Shown here piece after piece: positions 367-17,445 of a stretch of 32,000 nt of DNA. This DNA comes from Halogeometricum borinquense DSM 11551 (lineage in GTDB: Archaea > Halobacteriota > Halobacteria > Halobacteriales > Haloferacaceae), in NCBI RefSeq assembly GCF_000172995.2, contig NC_014729.1, forward strand, positions 510,001 to 542,000, in the 5' to 3' direction. The notes under the pieces are model-generated. The model had not been told where the DNA came from, ran no database searches, and was given only the letters and a program-made list of their open reading frames with translations. Each line of letters starts with the position of its first letter. Within the stretch, counting starts at the first letter, position 1. A program made the position numbers and the translations under genes.

Positions 367-3300
367 TCAGTCTAAAATGAGTTCGATCAGTTTGCGCTCT
401 GCGGCTCGGAGGTGGTACTGAAAGGTCGGCGAGGAGACATCGAACGCTTCCGAGAGCGTCGAGACGGATGTCTTGCGCGGCCAGTCGTACAGTCCTCCGT
501 GGAGTGCGGCCGAGATTGCTTCTCGCTGTCGTTCGGTCCACACTTCGTCGAGGCGCGCTCGGAAACTCCCGACCGAGTCGGTCGGTTCCGTGAGCGTTCG
601 ACGAGCAGCGAGCGTCGTCCGGGAGTACGTTGCGGCGAATGCGTCCACGACCGACCGCACGCTTACATCCGAAGGAATCGTCAGCGACACTGTACAGACG
701 CCGTTTTCGGCCACCATCTCGCGGAGTCTGCCACGTCCAGCGTACACTGTCTCGAACGGCGTCGTGTCCGCCGGCTGGACCTCATAGAGGTGTTCGTCGT
801 CGTCCTCATCGGTGAGTTCGCGGGCGAGCGTTCCCGGCGGAAGGGCGTCCCGCACGGCGTTCTTCGGCGCGGCAGTTCGGACGAACGTCCGGTAGTCGCC
901 CTCTGCTGTCGGGACGACACCGGTCACCGTCGCCGTCTCGCCGGTTGCCGTCGAGAGACGGACCAAGAAATGCTGGTCGTCTCGAATCTCTAATTCAACT
1001 TCGGTTTGCCGCTCGTCAAGAATCGGCTGTGTCCGCCCGAGACGGTCGATAACTGCTCCTAACGTCTCTCCGAGTTCGACCAGTACGTCGCCGTCCTCTC
1101 CGGCGAACGTGTCCGGGCGCGTGCCGTGAACGACGAGAAGTCGGTCGTTACCTGCGGGGACGACGGCGATGGACCGAAAGCCCTGTGCGAGGGCGTCCCG
1201 GCGATGCGGTTCCCACGCTGGGTCGTCCAATACGTCATTTACGACCGCACGTCGGCCCGTCGAAGCGACTCGTGAGAGCAACTCGGGGAACGGCGATGTC
1301 TGCGCCGCTTCGGTGAGCCGGGCTGCATAGCTGTCTTCGACGCCTGTCGTCGTCATGGGCACCACCCTGTCGTCGCTATTTGCTTCTTCGGGGGCCTCAC
1401 AGAGCCACGCGAACTGGTACGGTTCGGCTTCTACTAACCGTTCACACGCCCGCGCTGTCGCCTCTTCTGTCGTGGTCGCATGGACGACGGAGCGCGTCAC
1501 CTCTCTGACCGTTCGGTTGATACGGTTCAACTGCGTCAGCCGCTCGTTTTGCTGTTCGAGTTGCTGGTCCCTGCTTCGCAGCGCCTGCTTCGTCTCGACG
1601 CTTCCTAGCAACTCTCCCATCGTCGCTGCCAGCAGGCCGAGCATCTCGGCGTCGGTCTCCCGGATTGTCGCACCCGATAGCCGCTCGACAGCGAGGACGC
1701 CGTACTGACCCACTGGCACGAACTGGACCGTTGTTCCCTCCTCAACGCGCACCATTCGCTCCTCGGTGAAAGCAACCCAGCAGGGATCGTTCTCGGACTC
1801 GACAGGGGCGTCGCGGTTCACGCCGTCCGACTGGTACCGCCCTCGGTCTACTTCGTCCGACTGCGGGTGTCGTTCGAGTGTCCGCGTCGTGGCGTCATAG
1901 TCGAAAAAGGCGGCCCGACAGGGATCAAACAAGCTGTGACAGCCTTCGATAGTTCGCGTCACGACGGCGTCGGCGTTGTCGGCCTGCGCCATCTCGCGCG
2001 TCCGTTCGTGGAGCATCGTGAGCGACCGCTCGCGGTGACGTCGCTCGGTCACGTCGCGGGCGACGCCGACAGTGCCGACGAACTGATCCGTCTCTTCGTC
2101 CACAATCGCTGAAAAGTGCGTCTCGATCCACACCTCGGTGCCGTCGGGTAGTTCCGCTTTGAACTCCATCCGCTTTGGCTCGCCTGTTCGTGCGGCCTCC
2201 GCTTGGATGAGGGCGCTTTCGGCAGCGGTGTCTTCGTCGATAAGCTCGGTGGTGTGCATGCCGATGAGCGATTCTTGTTCGCGGCTGAACATCTCCGCGA
2301 ACGCTTGGTTGACCTGCACGATGTGCTGGTCGGAATCCAGTGCGTACACACCGTCATCGGCCGCCTCGACCATCCGCTCGTATCGAAGCAGTTCCATCTC
2401 GCGCTCGGTCCGGTCAGTTATGTCTGCGAAGTAGACCGAAAGCCCCGCCTGCGAGGGGTACGCCTCCACCTCGTACCAGCGGTCGTGCGGTGGGAAGTAC
2501 GACTCGAACGACACCTTTTCGCCGGTCTTGACCGCCTTTTCGTACCGTTCGCGGAACGGTTTGACAGCGTCGCTGTCGAACAGATCCCAGTAGTTCGTCC
2601 CGACGACTTCGCTGGCGGCCGTGTCCAGCAGTCGCTCGGCCTCTGGATTCATGTACGTCACACGCCAGTCGTTGTCCAGACCGATGAGGCCCTGATCCAT
2701 TCGGCTGAACATCTCTTCTAACGTCGTCCGGAGCGTCTCGCGTTCGATGACCGCCGCGATGAGTGCGGCGACGTTTTCGGTGAATCTGGCGTCAGTCTCG
2801 TCGAACGCGCCGCTCTCCGAACTGTGAACTGTAAGCACACCCCATGGTTCGGTGCCACCCCCGACGACGACACTTAACTCGCTGCCGGCATCGAGGTGAG
2901 CAGTCAGTTCTGTCGTCTCGCTCGACAGGTCGTTTTCGACGACTGGCTCTCGGTTCGTGAGTGCCCGTCCCGGCCCGGAGTCGAGTCCGACGGCGACGCC
3001 GCCGACGTAGACTTGCGGCCAGCCTTTGGCGGCGACAATCGACAGGTCACCGTGTTCAGGGCGCGACTGGAGGAGAGCGGCCCGCCCGGCATCGAGCGTT
3101 TCGGTAACGATTTCGACGGTTTCGGCGAACACTTCCTCTCGCGCCGGCCCGGAGAGCGCGAACGCGCCGAGATCTGAAAGCGCTCGCTGTTGTCTGTCGA
3201 GTTGCGCCCGCTTTTTGTCCGTCCGATAGGAGTCAGCGGCCGCCTCCATCCGGTTGGCTAACCACGTCGCCTCCGCATCCACTCCCCGGACGGCGAGATA

Positions 3301-12071: not shown

Positions 12072-13430
12072 ATGTCATCCTCTGACACCGCTCACTGGTC
12101 TGAGACACTGCGTGTGATGTTGAATGCGTCTTCCACGACAGACTCCGAAGTGACCGCCTTTATCGACGAGACGATACCGGATGGAGAGAACAAACTGTAC
12201 GACAACAAGCGCCAAGCGTTCATCCATGCGGATAGCAGTGACCAAGGCAAGGAACGGAATTTCCGATTATTGAAGCACATTTGTGCCCTTGCGAACACCC
12301 GTGGAGAGCAACGGTACAGGTACCTCTTCATCGGATTCGGTGACTCTGGGGGCTTCATCGGTGCCAGTGATTGGGACGCTAACGGCGGGGAGCACGTGGT
12401 TGAAGTCGATGAAGCTCGTGTTCAGGACCTCCTTTCGGATAGTCTTGACCCGGTTCCTGAGGTTGAGCGCACTGTGCTCACTCAAGATGACAACACTGCT
12501 GCGGTACTCTCGGTTCGGAGGTCGGATTCTCCACCAGTATTGTTTGACACCTCGATAACCACGAGTGGGGGTGCGACCACATTAGTGAAGAGCGGAGTTG
12601 GCTACGTGAGGAAGGGCTCACAGTCGCGCCCAATGCGTAATTCGGACTATAGAGTCATCATCGAACGCCGGGAAGACCTCGTGAACGAGAAGATTGAGGA
12701 AGCGCTCGGTGGGTTGCAGAGGATGGTTGGAATCTCCTCGGACCAACTTGAGAATCTGGAGATATCGGCGACATCAAGCGACGAGGGCGTCCCTATCGAC
12801 GAAATTGTGACGACAGAAGGTTACAGTGACCTCAACAAGCGACTATCCCTATCTGTTAAGGAGTGGAATTCAAGCGGCGAGCTCTACTCGTCGCGCGGGG
12901 CTGTGTACACGATGTTGAAGCGACGCGATGAGCTGGAACTGGACAACGAAAGGTGTGAATTCCTTGCGTGGAGTACCTTGAACAACAATTTCCCGCCAAC
13001 TGAGTGGATTATCCACCACGAAAATGACTTAGAGGATAGTTTGCTCAGCTTCTACCAAGCCCAACTGAATGGCCGCATGATATCCGTATTTGAGGCGGTC
13101 AACTATATGTTAGAGAATGAAAGGGTACTACGCGCCATCAGCGACGATGGCAGTATGGATTTCCAGTCATCCAAGGCAGACACCTACCTTGACTCAATAA
13201 CGGACCCGCCGGTGGAAAAGATTGAGGACCTCACGGCAAGACGGAACCTGAATATCACCGGCCACGATTACCCAATTACCGATATCGTCACCTCTGGTGG
13301 CCCAGTCGAAACGGGGCTGGAAGAAGTGGTTGACCGCCTAATCAGCGATGATGAAAGTAATGACAGGAGCATATTACGAGACATCGAATATACTAGGCTG
13401 GCGCAATACGTGAGTTCGGACCCAGAGTAA
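12072..13430 (+). CDS. AlbA_2 / Schlafen-like (divergent AAA) N-terminal domain protein with an uncharacterised C-terminal half
   Basis: 452-aa ORF with AT-rich codon usage. The N-terminal roughly 200 aa carry AlbA_2-type blocks: ...WSETL..., FRLLKHICALANTRGEQRYRYLFIGFGDSGGFIGAS, AAVLSVRRSDSPPVLF, GVGYVRKGSQSRPMRNSDYRVIIERR. Residues from about 220 to 452 show no motif I recognise. Confidence 0.75.
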   Translation: MSSSDTAHWSETLRVMLNASSTTDSEVTAFIDETIPDGENKLYDNKRQAFIHADSSDQGKERNFRLLKHICALANTRGEQRYRYLFIGFGDSGGFIGASDWDANGGEHVVEVDEARVQDLLSDSLDPVPEVERTVLTQDDNTAAVLSVRRSDSPPVLFDTSITTSGGATTLVKSGVGYVRKGSQSRPMRNSDYRVIIERREDLVNEKIEEALGGLQRMVGISSDQLENLEISATSSDEGVPIDEIVTTEGYSDLNKRLSLSVKEWNSSGELYSSRGAVYTMLKRRDELELDNERCEFLAWSTLNNNFPPTEWIIHHENDLEDSLLSFYQAQLNGRMISVFEAVNYMLENERVLRAISDDGSMDFQSSKADTYLDSITDPPVEKIEDLTARRNLNITGHDYPITDIVTSGGPVETGLEEVVDRLISDDESNDRSILRDIEYTRLAQYVSSDPE

Positions 13431-13940
13431 CACGCGTTCTCATCTGTGGATGTCATTCCGAGGGCGGGCAATAGCTCACTTTACACCGGCGATAGGGATA
13501 CACAGTCAGCCGTTTCTATACTGTCCGGGAGGGCGTGCTTCGTAGTTGTTTAACAACTAAGCAGATGGCCACGGCGGTATCGGCTGAAACCGCAGAAAAC
13601 TGCCGTTTGAGTCGCACCCCGGACTCAAAACACAGAAAGACCGAACTAACATCGACACGGAGTGGAAACAGAAGTACGTACGTACTCATTCCACTTCTAT
13701 AACCAGAACGACAACGACAGTGGTGGTTGACTGGCTGACAGGCAACCACTTGGTCATCGGGGCGGGCCGACTATCTCCCGCCCCTCCCGTGTATACCGTA
13801 CTGACGAGTGCGTAGGACAATTGTGGGACGGCTCAAAGCGCGTTTCCGTACTGCGGATAGCGAGGGAGGCCCCGCCGACCGCCTCCTCGGCGGAAAAAGT
13901 AAATATCGCTGGCTGAAATTATCGTTATCACCGTATTCTG

Positions 13941-14138
13941 ATGACCTATACACCACCAGAAAAAATCAAGGAATTAGCAAAAGAAGCACAAAGCAACCCT
14001 CTGAGAGACGCTTCTCTGCTTCTCCCCCCTCTCAGTGCTTTTGCGTTATCCGCTTACCCAAAGTATGGTGTTTGGGGACTTGTTTTGACAGTGTTAATCG
14101 GCTTAGTTTCAGTATCACTTGCCCAGTATTTTAAATAA
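13941..14138 (+). CDS. 65-aa micro-membrane protein (two hydrophobic segments)
   Basis: MTYTPPEKIKELAKEAQSNPLRDASLLLPPLSAFALSAYPKYGVWGLVLTVLIGLVSVSLAQYFK. This is the most AT-rich part of the window. AAATTAT at 13916-13922 lies about 22 nt upstream. The ORF ends in tandem TAA TAA stops followed by T5 at 14142-14146. Confidence 0.45.
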   Translation: MTYTPPEKIKELAKEAQSNPLRDASLLLPPLSAFALSAYPKYGVWGLVLTVLIGLVSVSLAQYFK

Positions 14139-14400
14139 TAATTTTTATCGCGGGTGTCGGGGCGGCCGATATTGCGTGAATTAATCGCCACGCTTCTGGC
14201 GCGGACACCCACCCCCTATCCAGTGAGGAACTGAAAGCCGCCCGCGCCAATTTCGACGGGGGGAGTCGTACCGCCTTCGGATGATTATGGGCGTAGGGAG
14301 AGAGGTAGCGCGCAGAACATATATCAGATTGGTAGAGTAGTATGGCGCGTTCGCTCCGATAGGCCCGCAAATTGTCTACACAATTGGCTACACAAAACAG

Positions 14401-16218
14401 TTACTTCCCCCAGAAGGGGTCACGCTGTCGGTGTTTATCCAAATATCCAGTCAACGCTTCGAGTTCGTCGGCGGGAATCTCGTCGGACAGTTCCTGTTCG
14501 AGAATCTTCGCGTGTTTCTCGGGCAGTTCCGTCCAGAGTTCGTCGCCCTCCTCGATCTGTCGGCCGACCGTGGGGCCGTCGATGGCGACCGAAACGCGGT
14601 TGCCCGCGCGGGCTTCCGAAACGTCCTCGCCCTGCTCTTGGATGCCGGAGAGTTGGCCGACGCGGGTGGTTTCGTTGCCCTCCCACTTCACGACGTTCGC
14701 GTTGTTTTTCAGCGTCCCCGAGAGGACTTCGACGCCGACGACGGCGGGGCTCGACTGTCGGAAGACGTGATCTTCGAGGATGCGGAACCGGCAGGGTCGC
14801 ATGATCTTGTCCAGCACCGTCTCCTGCTGGGCGCGCTTGCGTTCCTCGACGAACTCCTCGTACTCCTCGATGAGTTGGTAGATAACGTCGTCCTTGAACA
14901 GACGCACGTCGCCCGTTTTCTCCAGTTCGTCCTCGGCGTTGGCGAGTACGTCCACGTTGAAGCCGAGGATGACCTTGTTCTCCATCTCGCGGGCTGTCGA
15001 GGCGACGGCCACGTCGCGCGGGGCAACGTCGCCGACTTCTGCGCGGAGAATCGGGACTTCCGCTTCGCGCAGCGCGTTCGCCATCGCCTCCAAACTGCCG
15101 AGGGTGTCCGCCTTCACGACGACACCCTCTTCTTCGGTATCCACTTCGATTTCGGCCAGTTCGGACTCAACCTCGGCGATAACGTCGTCTACAGGCTGGT
15201 CGCGGACGACGCGAATCGGCGCGCCCGCCATCGCATCATCGAGATCCGGAGCGGCAATTTTGATACCCGCGGCGGCGCGTACCTCTTCGACCTTATCGAA
15301 CCGTTTCTCGGTTCGAATCTCGGCGTTCGGCCGCGGTTGCAGGAGGGCCCGAACTTCCGTGACGATAGGGCCGTTGACACCGCCGACGACGATCGTGTCG
15401 CTCTCGCGGACACTCCCGTCGTACAGGACAACGTCTACTGTCGCACCGAACCCGCGCTCTTCTTTCACTTCGAGGACGGTTCCCGCGCCGGGACCGCCCA
15501 CGTCTACGGCCATCTCCTCTTTCATGTATCGTTGGGAGAGACCCATGAGAACCGCGAGCAAGTCAGGAATCCCTTCGCCGGTCATTGCCGACAGCGGGAC
15601 GACGCCGACGTTCTTCTGGAAGTTCTGCACGCGCCAGTAGAGGTCCGCAGAGAAGCCTTCGTCCGAGAGATTACCGATTATCTCGTAGAGGTTCTGGTCC
15701 AGTCGTTGCCGGGCGTTGTCCGACTGGTTCTCGTACGTCTCCTGAATGGGTGATCCGTCGTTCGGGTTCCATCCGGGCGTCGTGTCAATTTTGTTGGCGG
15801 CGACCACGAACGGCGTCCCGGTTCGCTTGAGGATGTCGAGCGCCTCGATGGTCTGCGGTTGGAATCCGTCGTTAACGTCAACGACGACAATGGCGATGTC
15901 GGCCAGTGCGCCACCGCGTGATCGAAGCGTCGAGAACGAGTGATGCCCGGGCGTGTCGATGAACAACAATCCGGGAAGGTCGAAGTCGTCCGGATTGACG
16001 AGACTGCCGGCCATCTGTGAGACCGTATCTAGCGGAACCGCCGTAGCGCCGATGTGTTGTGTGATCGCGCCTGCTTCGCCTTCCGAGACCGCAGAGCCGC
16101 GAATCTTGTCGAGCAGCGTCGTCTTGCCGTGATCGACGTGCCCGAGAACAGCGACGATGGGGGTTCGGAGTGCGTTCGATTCAGTCGTGGAAGGAGCGTC
16201 GGCGTCGGTGTCAGACAT
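14401..16218 (-). CDS. infB: Translation initiation factor aIF5B (IF2-type GTPase)
   Basis: 605-aa ORF with G1 GHVDHGKTT, G3 DTPGH and G4 NKID, plus the domain II-IV layout typical of aIF5B. A TATA-like TCTATATCGATA at 16241-16252 lies about 28 nt upstream of the ATG. Confidence 0.95.
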   Translation of the reverse strand: MSDTDADAPSTTESNALRTPIVAVLGHVDHGKTTLLDKIRGSAVSEGEAGAITQHIGATAVPLDTVSQMAGSLVNPDDFDLPGLLFIDTPGHHSFSTLRSRGGALADIAIVVVDVNDGFQPQTIEALDILKRTGTPFVVAANKIDTTPGWNPNDGSPIQETYENQSDNARQRLDQNLYEIIGNLSDEGFSADLYWRVQNFQKNVGVVPLSAMTGEGIPDLLAVLMGLSQRYMKEEMAVDVGGPGAGTVLEVKEERGFGATVDVVLYDGSVRESDTIVVGGVNGPIVTEVRALLQPRPNAEIRTEKRFDKVEEVRAAAGIKIAAPDLDDAMAGAPIRVVRDQPVDDVIAEVESELAEIEVDTEEEGVVVKADTLGSLEAMANALREAEVPILRAEVGDVAPRDVAVASTAREMENKVILGFNVDVLANAEDELEKTGDVRLFKDDVIYQLIEEYEEFVEERKRAQQETVLDKIMRPCRFRILEDHVFRQSSPAVVGVEVLSGTLKNNANVVKWEGNETTRVGQLSGIQEQGEDVSEARAGNRVSVAIDGPTVGRQIEEGDELWTELPEKHAKILEQELSDEIPADELEALTGYLDKHRQRDPFWGK

Positions 16219-16435
16219 GAAAAATCACTCCGAGAAGTGTTCTATATCGATACGCAGGGGGCACCGAAGTTAAGTCCATCGTCACGTCCGGACAAGCGCC
16301 AGCGCGAGACGTGAGGACGCGCCGGATTTCGGACAAATCGACGGACAGTCCAGTTTTCCAGACTGCCCAATACGCTTTGATTCCTCCGTCTGTCCCTCTC
16401 ATCGATACGTCTCGCCATTGACTCGCGACCTGTAA

Positions 16436-16718
16436 TTACCAATTTACTATTTGGAAGCGACCAACTAAGTACCAATATATCGCTCTCGGACATCACAGAA
16501 TTACCAATATATTACCACTGCCGTTTTCGCCGGGACCAATCTATGACGCCTCGGGACTGTCCCAGTACCAACTTATTGCGACCCGATCACTAGAACATAC
16601 CAAATTATTACCACACTGTCACTCCCTCATTACCGCCTTATTACCAGCTTGCTACCGCTCGTCGGACGGTCGTCGGACGGTCCCCGTGGCACTTATGTTA
16701 CCGTGGTCGAATACCTCT
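16436..16718 (+). repeat. Array of about 13 same-orientation TTACCAA-like motifs (consensus roughly TTACCAAyWTA) phased at multiples of about 10.7 bp
   Basis: The ACCA(A/C/G) or ACCG core starts at 16438, 16460, 16471, 16503, 16514, 16535, 16567, 16599, 16610, 16632, 16643, 16654 and 16700. Successive spacings are 22, 11, 32, 11, 21, 32, 32, 11, 22, 11, 11 and 46. No reverse-complement TGGTA copy occurs in the interval. Confidence 0.7.
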
Positions 16719-16722
16719 CCTC

Positions 16723-16968
16723 ATGGCCGATGTACTCGCCGAGAATCTCTCCGGGAAGGCCGTCATGGGTTCTGACGGGACGGAGCTCGGAATGCTGTAC
16801 AACATCACGATGAATCTGAAGACGGGGAAGCTCCACGATCTGCTCGTCTCGCCGCACGAGGAGATTCATCCGGATCAGTTCTCCTTCCAACAAGACGAGC
16901 AGGGGCGCTTTTGCGTCCCCGTCTCTCGGGTCCAAGCCGTAAAAGACTACATCGTCGTTCAACGATAG
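16723..16968 (+). CDS. PRC-barrel domain protein
   Basis: 81-aa ORF. LSGKAVMGSDGTELGMLYNITMNLKTGKLHDLLV is the typical PRC-barrel core. A TATA-like CTTATGTTA at 16692-16700 lies about 27 nt upstream. Confidence 0.8.
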   Translation: MADVLAENLSGKAVMGSDGTELGMLYNITMNLKTGKLHDLLVSPHEEIHPDQFSFQQDEQGRFCVPVSRVQAVKDYIVVQR

Positions 16969-16986: not shown

Positions 16987-17445
16987 ATGCAGGTTCTCGA
17001 CTCTTCCGCGTTCATCCACGAGTACCACACCGACGACCAGACAGCCTCAATTCCGCTCGTCAGCGACGAGTTGGAGGGAGAGGCTTCCTTCCGCTTCGAC
17101 GCTATGGAAGGGGCGGGGATGCACATCCACATCCCCGCGTCGGGAACCGTCGAGAAAATCCGGCGCGCTGCCGGGGAAACTGGCGACCGAGAGACGCTCT
17201 CGGACACAGACATCCGTCTTCTGGCCGCCGCGTTCGAACTTGACGCGACTCTCGTCACCGACGATTACGCGATGCAGAACGTCGCCGAACGCGTCAACGT
17301 ACACGTAAACGTCATCGCACAGGACGGTATCGAAGAACAGCGCGACTGGCGGTTCCAGTGTCAAGGCTGTGGCCGCGAGTTCGACGAACACAAAGACCGC
17401 TGTCCCATCTGCGGGATGGAACTCGCGCGGAAGAATCCGGCGTAA
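16987..17445 (+). CDS. nob1: Nob1-type endonuclease (PIN domain plus C-terminal zinc ribbon), 16S rRNA 3'-end maturation
   Basis: 152-aa ORF. The N-terminal MQVLDSSAFI and the later LVTDDYAMQNVA are PIN acidic-residue contexts. The C-terminus has CQGCGREF...CPICG. Confidence 0.85.
   Translation: MQVLDSSAFIHEYHTDDQTASIPLVSDELEGEASFRFDAMEGAGMHIHIPASGTVEKIRRAAGETGDRETLSDTDIRLLAAAFELDATLVTDDYAMQNVAERVNVHVNVIAQDGIEEQRDWRFQCQGCGREFDEHKDRCPICGMELARKNPA

Follow-up and report, generated by a model that had tools for sequence, protein, structure and literature searches.

What is the row of short, similarly oriented boxes that separates infB from the divergent PRC-barrel gene in Halogeometricum borinquense DSM 11551, and could it serve the promoter beside which it lies? 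The window, that is, the whole 32-kb stretch of DNA analysed here, belongs to this strain; the intergenic region in question and the 3 kb downstream of it are identical to GCA_000337855 (DSM 11551). A preliminary description of the window had listed 13 plus-strand copies of ACC[AG], all of which were recovered exactly within 16436-16718, and the only other ACC[AG] on the plus strand of the intergenic region is a single distant copy at 16263. The reported absence of inverted copies likewise held, with neither TGGTA nor YGGTA occurring on that strand, and the length of the region, given as 505 bp, had to be corrected to 504 bp, counted between the infB start (16218, minus strand) and the PRC-barrel start (16723). 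Our answer, which is a tentative one, is that the boxes may form an accessory, iteron-like docking array for protein, non-coding and specific to H. borinquense, which would be laid out on a three-turn lattice and act on the adjacent promoter of the PRC-barrel gene, an orthologue of the cell-division gene cdpB2.

Both the clustering and the phasing of the boxes depart strongly from chance. TACCA occurs eight times on one strand within 210 bp (Poisson P = 5.5e-13 for the cluster), and the whole window contains 42 TACCA on both strands versus 20 +/- 4 in shuffled sequences. For the 13 sites, the maximum of a Rayleigh-type phase statistic lies at 10.8 bp (R = 0.88), whereas the best period of the eight TACCA is 10.75 bp (R = 0.97); neither R was reached by any of 5000 random placements (p < 2e-4), so that the comparison with chance that the preliminary description had proposed came out significant. 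The 11 TACC[AG] sites are also phased (p = 0.002). The array of ~10.7-bp phase described there is therefore real as regards phasing, but its dominant period is another one: the autocorrelation is strongest at 32 bp (z = 6.9), with lower peaks at 11 bp (z = 4.5) and at multiples of 32 bp, and the array resolves into seven heads plus half-heads at +11 or +22. Taken together, the 32-bp dominance and the position of the half-heads indicate that the apparent 10.7-bp phasing is a three-turn lattice with occasional one- and two-turn occupancy. Its components are as follows, with scores from a position weight matrix (PWM) of the heads where given.

16436..16658, plus strand: the array, seven units of 32-33 bp (13-bp head and ~19-bp spacer) with five half-heads on an 11-bp sub-lattice
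16436..16448, plus strand: head 1, TTACCAATTTACT (PWM 20.4 bits)
16458..16464, plus strand: half-head CGACCAA, 22 bp after head 1
16469..16481, plus strand: head 2, GTACCAATATATC (PWM 19.2 bits)
16501..16513, plus strand: head 3, TTACCAATATATT, its yW positions varying among strains
16512..16518, plus strand: half-head TTACCAC, 11 bp after head 3
16533..16545, plus strand: head 4, GGACCAATCTATG, with ACC changed to ATC in L223
16565..16577, plus strand: head 5, GTACCAACTTATT
16597..16609, plus strand: head 6, ATACCAAATTATT, with ACC changed to ACT in L222, L223 and L228
16608..16614, plus strand: half-head TTACCAC, 11 bp after head 6
16630..16642, plus strand: head 7, TTACCGCCTTATT
16641..16647, plus strand: half-head TTACCAG, 11 bp after head 7
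16652..16658, plus strand: half-head CTACCGC, 22 bp after head 7, on the junction with sequence common to relatives

The heads share the 13-bp consensus KTACCAAyWTATT, in which ACC and the later TA are invariant in the window, and they follow one another at 33, 32, 32, 32, 32 and 33 bp. All five half-heads lie at +11 or +22 from a head, an outcome that random placement inside the spacers would give with P ~0.003. Pairwise identity among the heads is 0.65-0.75 and is independent of the distance between units, whereas the 19-bp spacers are identical at 0.23-0.37 of their positions, versus 0.275 expected from composition; this contrast between heads and spacers is improbable for a tandem repeat that decays uniformly (p = 0.004). 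Neighbouring copies would face the same side of the helix, as had been claimed for the whole array over ~20 turns. However, a helical repeat of 10.5 bp against a lattice of 10.75-10.8 bp implies a drift of about half a turn over 20 periods, and the alignment would extend from end to end only if the local repeat is ~10.75 bp. The last of the 13 copies (16700), said to overlap a TATA-like sequence, does lie in the cdpB2 promoter CACTTATGTnACCGTGG, but it does not belong to the array, because relatives without the array share it.

The docking array that we favour would have originated in this lineage by hierarchical tandem duplication, probably first of 11 bp and then of 32 bp, replacing the short GC-rich spacer of relatives, after which heads and spacing would have been retained while the spacers diverged to chance-level likeness. 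Copies of one sequence-specific DNA-binding protein could then bind head-to-tail on neighbouring boxes, on the same face of the DNA, and the resulting one-sided protein filament would end at a conserved pair of CGTCnGACG boxes and at the TFB-recognition element (BRE) and TATA box shared by cdpB2 and nob1. Such a filament may tune the access of a conserved regulator or of TBP/TFB to the cdpB2-nob1 promoter, and possibly insulate this promoter from the divergent infB promoter, in a role that would be accessory and redundant rather than essential. TBP/TFB is itself one candidate binder, because every head has a TATA-like pentamer: the head cores CTTAT, ATATA or TTTAC resemble those at -32 to -25 of the real leaderless promoters of the window. 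One argument for a bound array comes from its spacing. Neutral divergence that had carried the spacers to chance-level likeness, with indels occurring, should also have scrambled the distances between heads; the retained 32-33-bp spacing is thus hard to reconcile with a purely neutral decayed minisatellite and points to selection on boxes and spacing, now or in the past. With the nearest relative at K(4-fold) = 0.32 and the spacers evolving at 3.7 times the 4-fold rate, an origin in place is compatible with the timing, and an older imported array fits too.

A stronger version, in which the array would be a recent and active nucleoprotein platform that loads seven to twelve protein copies on one DNA face against the CGTCnGACG operator and provides species-specific control of cdpB2-nob1 and perhaps infB, is in our judgement unlikely. 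If it were true, the locus would be a rare snapshot of a cooperative operator array born by 11-bp and then 32-bp duplication and held by selection. More generally, if the boxes are bound, they would offer a tractable natural case of a phased cooperative operator array arising in a single archaeal species, adjoining a gene that haloarchaea require for normal division, and single boxes are already knocked out in natural strains. If they are not bound, the array is a caution that striking helical phasing may be a legacy of the repeat length in a tandem duplication, without function.

Boxes at a fixed three-turn spacing in otherwise unrelated sequence fit the iteron-like, cooperative one-face architecture that the preliminary description had envisaged. 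As far as such analogies go, the array appears to resemble iterons or parC-type and ribbon-helix-helix operator arrays most, yet the genes that go with either class were not found among the surveyed window ORFs. Like the iterons (17-22-bp Rep-binding repeats of R6K, pSC101, RK2 and P1), it consists of imperfect direct repeats in one orientation with whole-turn spacing, unrelated spacers and an AT-rich composition; unlike them, it is chromosomal, lies between housekeeping genes, has 13-bp boxes of ~73% identity, is confined to one species, and has no adjacent rep or orc1/cdc6 gene and no adjoining unwinding element. No rep, orc1/cdc6 or par gene was found in the gene tables within +/-10 kb or in a Pfam scan of further large open reading frames (ORFs) of the window, and no integrase or tRNA-linked gene was seen among the window ORFs surveyed. 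The parC/ParR centromeres and ribbon-helix-helix arrays (R1 parC with ten 11-bp repeats, omega heptads, MetJ met-boxes), on which protein assembles cooperatively in many copies, share the same-orientation lattice of ~11 bp beside a promoter, but they are built of contiguous 7-11-bp units, whereas the main period here is 32 bp and par genes are lacking among the surveyed ORFs. A ParR/parC-type centromere was accordingly rejected, as no partition operon (parA/parM plus parB/parR) occurs among these ORFs.

Direct-repeat operators of the OmpR/PhoB/SARP type (pho boxes, heptamers of 11-bp period) are bound head-to-tail on one face, abut the core promoter and comprise 2-6 repeats. The array shares with them 11-bp direct repeats upstream of a core promoter (units 3, 6 and 7-9), but it is located 66-287 bp upstream of the start codon, beyond another conserved operator, and we know of no regulator of these families linked to the head motif in archaea. 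A haloarchaeal direct-repeat site with AACCA(A) upstream of a BRE is found in the GvpE upstream activating sequence of gas-vesicle promoters. This element, TGAAACGG-n4-TGAACCAA (consensus printed as YGAAAYGA), has two 8-nt portions with a 12-bp period, needs to lie immediately next to the BRE and has been reported as specific to gvp clusters (PMC2241852). It was rejected as a match, because only ACCA(A) is common to both, the heads being KTACCAAyWTATT at 32- and 11-bp spacing and at least 66 bp from the start codon. Intergenic minisatellites, i.e. variable-number tandem repeats, share a tandem-duplication origin and restriction to one lineage, and other lineages do have young repeats in the same region; a strict variable-number repeat does not apply, since only the 13-bp head is conserved, the spacers are at chance identity and no copy-number variation was seen among four haplotypes. 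Arrays of clustered regularly interspaced short palindromic repeats (CRISPR) have 24-40-nt repeats separated by unique spacers of about the same length, and cas genes are usually nearby; they were dismissed in view of the degenerate 13-bp heads, the 19-bp spacers and the lack of a cas gene among the surveyed window ORFs. Archaeal origin recognition boxes, which are inverted repeats on either side of an AT-rich unwinding element beside orc1/cdc6, were set apart on the basis of this layout, all copies here being direct, with no inverted partner and no orc1/cdc6 gene among the surveyed ORFs.

The motif itself appears not to be a described haloarchaeal element, as the preliminary description had supposed, with no match found in Rfam or in the literature. 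Literature on archaeal TTACCAA apparently yielded only primers and unrelated sequences. Plasmid and phage collections contained no blastn match to 16330-16670 at E <= 1, scans of viral contigs by pattern returned only chance matches or unrelated perfect tandem repeats in low- and medium-GC phage contigs, and a metagenome scan for three TACCAA at 32-33 bp gave, among the matches listed, only chance, tandem-repeat and unrelated hits, none of them array-like.

The distribution of the array was assessed at the orthologous locus of 80 GTDB species representatives and five Halogeometricum-related lineages (L081, L082, L083, L084 and L338), 85 in all, where the intergenic region is usually 130-300 bp long. 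In the 600 bp upstream of the gene, the relatives have at most three TACCR per strand versus 11 in the window (L338 has one in a 259-bp intergenic region), and a cluster of five TACCA within 250 bp was found in none of the 84 haloarchaeal loci scanned (~500 kb). Homology to all Halogeometricum relatives ends at ~16338-16350 and restarts at ~16657-16660, so that ~310 bp (16351-16656) are specific to H. borinquense, with a short, GC-rich and itself non-conserved spacer in the relatives instead. Young, independent tandem repeats occur in the same intergenic region of L004 (2802-2928, a 25-bp unit repeated 5.1 times, CGCCTCACCCCCTCGTCGTCGACCC) and, in shorter form, of L045 and L053, and the infB/cdpB2 spacer seems prone to repeat expansion. 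In L082 (Halogeometricum sp. wsp3, ~1900-3000), the gap between infB and cdpB2 is apparently ~1.1 kb with extra, apparently frameshifted ORFs, one of them with an apparent Tat-type signal sequence, and homology to the window starts only at ~16670; the assembly may be of low quality, since infB of this lineage is divided among several ORFs.

Within the species, the array is present in all four distinct haplotypes, with a constant number of units in an intergenic region of 503-504 bp. Variable positions are distributed as follows.

Heads and half-heads: 9 of 120 (7.5%)
TACCR cores: 4 of 60 (6.7%)
Spacers: 17 of 103 (16.5%)
Motif-free unique segment, 16345-16435: 6 of 91 (6.6%)
Conserved flanks of the intergenic region: 4 of 190 (2.1%)
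4-fold sites of the flanking genes: 62 of 1373 (4.5%)

The variability of the heads is about half that of the spacers (p = 0.058), the latter evolving within the species at 3.7 times the rate of 4-fold sites, and indels account for two of the 36 polymorphic columns of the region. Clusters of adjacent substitutions among strains at 16494-16499 and 16592-16596, just upstream of heads 3 and 6, suggest multi-nucleotide events (template switching, conversion) instead of independent point mutations, and make the spacers the most polymorphic sites of the region.

Several of these results weigh against a protein-docking function and are gathered here. The array is absent from the orthologous intergenic region of all 85 other Halobacteria, including the five Halogeometricum lineages and species with 86-90% nucleotide identity in cdpB2/nob1, which indicates that it is dispensable for the expression of infB, cdpB2 and nob1 in general. 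The preliminary description had counted a lack of conservation of motif and spacing in orthologous regions among the things that would speak against its interpretation; no such conservation was found in the 85 lineages, and a conserved infB/cdpB2 regulatory element was rejected on the same ground (array in 0 of 85). The heads are not less variable than the adjacent motif-free unique DNA or 4-fold sites, and they are 3.8 times more variable than the conserved intergenic flanks (p = 0.037). The otherwise invariant ACC has been lost from head 4 in one strain and from head 6 in three assemblies. Scored with the head PWM, the rest of the window contains no strong site (five weak matches, with five expected). 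Present-day constraint on single boxes is thus weak at best, as would be expected for redundant sites and equally for a drifting relic.

An unlikely alternative is a functionless, decaying tandem repeat: replication slippage in a spacer prone to it would have given an 11-bp repeat and later a 32-bp one, the phasing would merely be the inherited unit length, and the likeness of the heads would come from short-tract conversion between units, or from chance. The species restriction and dispensability of the array, the nearly neutral rate of its heads, the two cores lost in some strains, and the independent tandem repeats of L004, L045 and L053 all speak for it. The heads of L224 fit inter-unit conversion, its head 3 having the same 13 nt as head 1 and its head 6 sharing a stretch of 12 nt with head 5. 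Head variants reproducing the states of other units are suggestive only, since conversion and tolerated motif variants would both explain them; point changes at degenerate positions account for the patterns equally well, and inter-unit gene conversion was for this reason not retained as the explanation. On the other hand, 13-bp heads are short conversion substrates, uniform decay does not yield heads at 0.73 identity beside chance-level spacers (p = 0.004), the 32-33-bp spacing has held despite such spacers and a measurable indel rate, and the four haplotypes show no copy-number polymorphism.

Rather unlikely, too, is a relic of a foreign or relocated array, e.g. iterons or a partition site from a plasmid or virus, which would have entered this intergenic region before the split of the H. 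borinquense strains and would be drifting today. The array is AT-rich (~46-51% GC over 16436..16658, with a G-poor plus strand) in a genome of ~62% GC, its head/spacer layout with exact spacing is classic for iterons, and its present head variation looks neutral. The chance-level spacers, at a distance of only K(4-fold) = 0.32 from the nearest relative, may further mean that the array predates its residence here, but spacers that evolve 3.7 times faster than 4-fold sites make divergence to chance in place feasible as well. Against a capture, the plasmid and phage collections gave no match and the viral scans only unrelated tandem repeats, the surveyed window ORFs include no rep, orc1/cdc6, par, integrase or tRNA-linked gene, and the segment replaces a spacer, without an insertion signature.

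It is quite improbable that the boxes are cryptic core promoters or TBP/TFB decoys, derived by duplication of the cdpB2 TATA region and giving short non-coding transcripts or local titration of the factors. Head cores such as CTTAT, ATATA, ATTAT or TTTAC are like the real TATA boxes of the window, the 'TTAT-TACC' of units 3, 6 and 7 resembles CTTATGTTACC of the real promoter, and the 32-bp unit would be near the TATA-to-start distance of leaderless promoters. However, the likeness to the cdpB2 promoter (TTAT then TTACC) amounts to only 5+5 nt, too short for significance, the expected BRE position is occupied by ACCAA instead of the purine-rich sequence of real promoters, and neither strand shows RNA structure.

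A small non-coding RNA or protein-sponge RNA with UACCAA repeats (UUGGUA if read from the other strand) is very improbable. A 504-bp intergenic region is long for a haloarchaeon, and the G-poor plus strand is predicted to be unstructured, like sponge RNAs; yet Rfam 15 gave no match at gathering thresholds or at E <= 1, the fold z-scores are +1.4 for the plus strand (worse than shuffles) and -1.4 for the minus strand, the region has no terminator-like site, and the array is conserved in no other species examined. Coding capacity is equally scarce, with no ORF of at least 20 aa on the plus strand of the array and with the longest minus-strand ORF (16242-16496) broken by a 1-bp deletion in L223. 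Intrinsically curved DNA, which the preliminary description had also offered and which a 10.75-10.8-bp periodicity over ~220 bp could suggest, is scarcely credible, since the array contains no phased A-tracts and a dinucleotide wedge model (positive and negative control sequences behaving correctly) predicts a nearly straight path, with an end-to-end/contour ratio of 0.97; 81% of same-length windows and 93% of shuffles are less straight.

The genes and other elements around the array are the following.

14401..16218, minus strand: infB (aIF5B), from the gene table
16240..16248, minus strand: TATA-like GATATAGAA of infB, at an inferred position ~26 bp upstream of the leaderless start codon
16351..16435, no strand assigned: motif-free left part of the H. 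borinquense-specific segment, with an imperfect hairpin at ~16342-16370
16660..16679, no strand assigned: two palindromic boxes CGTCGGACG (CGTCnGACG), 11 bp apart, at -63 and -52 of cdpB2, directly upstream of BRE/TATA
16692..16703, plus strand: TATA-like CTTATGT then TTACCG of cdpB2, kept in relatives without the array
16723..16968, plus strand: PRC-barrel gene, orthologue of cdpB2 (HVO_1964) by homology, synteny and the paper cited below
16987..17445, plus strand: nob1-type PIN_6 endonuclease gene

The end of the array directly abuts the CGTCnGACG pair, which is far more widespread than the array itself. At 56 of 82 orthologous loci, the interval from -110 to -31 contains CGTCnGACG boxes with at most one mismatch, usually at -50 and -61, versus 10 of 82 for a coding stretch of equal length; the pair was seen at about -50 and -61 of the PRC-barrel start in L001, L005-L018, L032-L036 and others. 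Judged from the sequence, it is likely an ancestral, conserved candidate operator of cdpB2 and, as a candidate conserved operator of a cell-division gene, represents a more general lead that may merit more attention than the array. A link of CdrS to cdpB2 was considered and rejected, because HVO_1964 is not among the 18 published CdrS sites from chromatin immunoprecipitation sequencing. At the left edge of the species-specific segment, 16337-16349 has a box-like CGACGGACAGTC, where the nearest relative L081 has CGACGGACGGTC, so that box-like sequences stand on both sides of the variable spacer, at a distance of 322 bp here and of ~85 bp in L081.

The gene order infB, PRC barrel, PIN_6/Nob1, Rce1-like gene and PGI is kept in relatives. 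The PRC-barrel protein of the window, of which identical copies are encoded by several H. borinquense assemblies, is 77-80% identical to Haloferax proteins in the same synteny. In H. volcanii, HVO_1964, which is divergent to infB, has been renamed CdpB2, a protein that localises at mid-cell and whose deletion leads to division defects (bioRxiv 10.1101/2023.03.28.534520). The pair downstream of the array thus combines nob1 with a preceding cell-division gene rather than consisting simply of ribosome-maturation genes: the context of ribosome-maturation and translation-initiation genes given in the preliminary description has to be revised, the cdpB2 orthologue not being a demonstrated ribosome-maturation factor.

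Further features were seen around the array. Upstream of the infB promoter, at 16255-16340, Halogeometricum, Halopelagius and the L338 lineage share a conserved though non-coding block, GAAGTTAAGTCCATCGTCACG...GCGCGAGAC...CCGATTTCGG. The hairpin at ~16342-16370 reads GGACAGTCCAG-TTTT-CCAGACTGCCC and would form, as minus-strand RNA, a 12-bp stem with G-U pairs. Just past the 3' end of infB lies a strain-variable island (12072-14400), near which L222 and L223 have a TnpB-like (Cas12f1-like_TNB) gene instead and L224 has neither; in DSM 11551, it contains a gene of 452 aa with a Schlafen/AlbA_2 domain, followed by low-GC DNA (~46-55% GC around 14000-14400).

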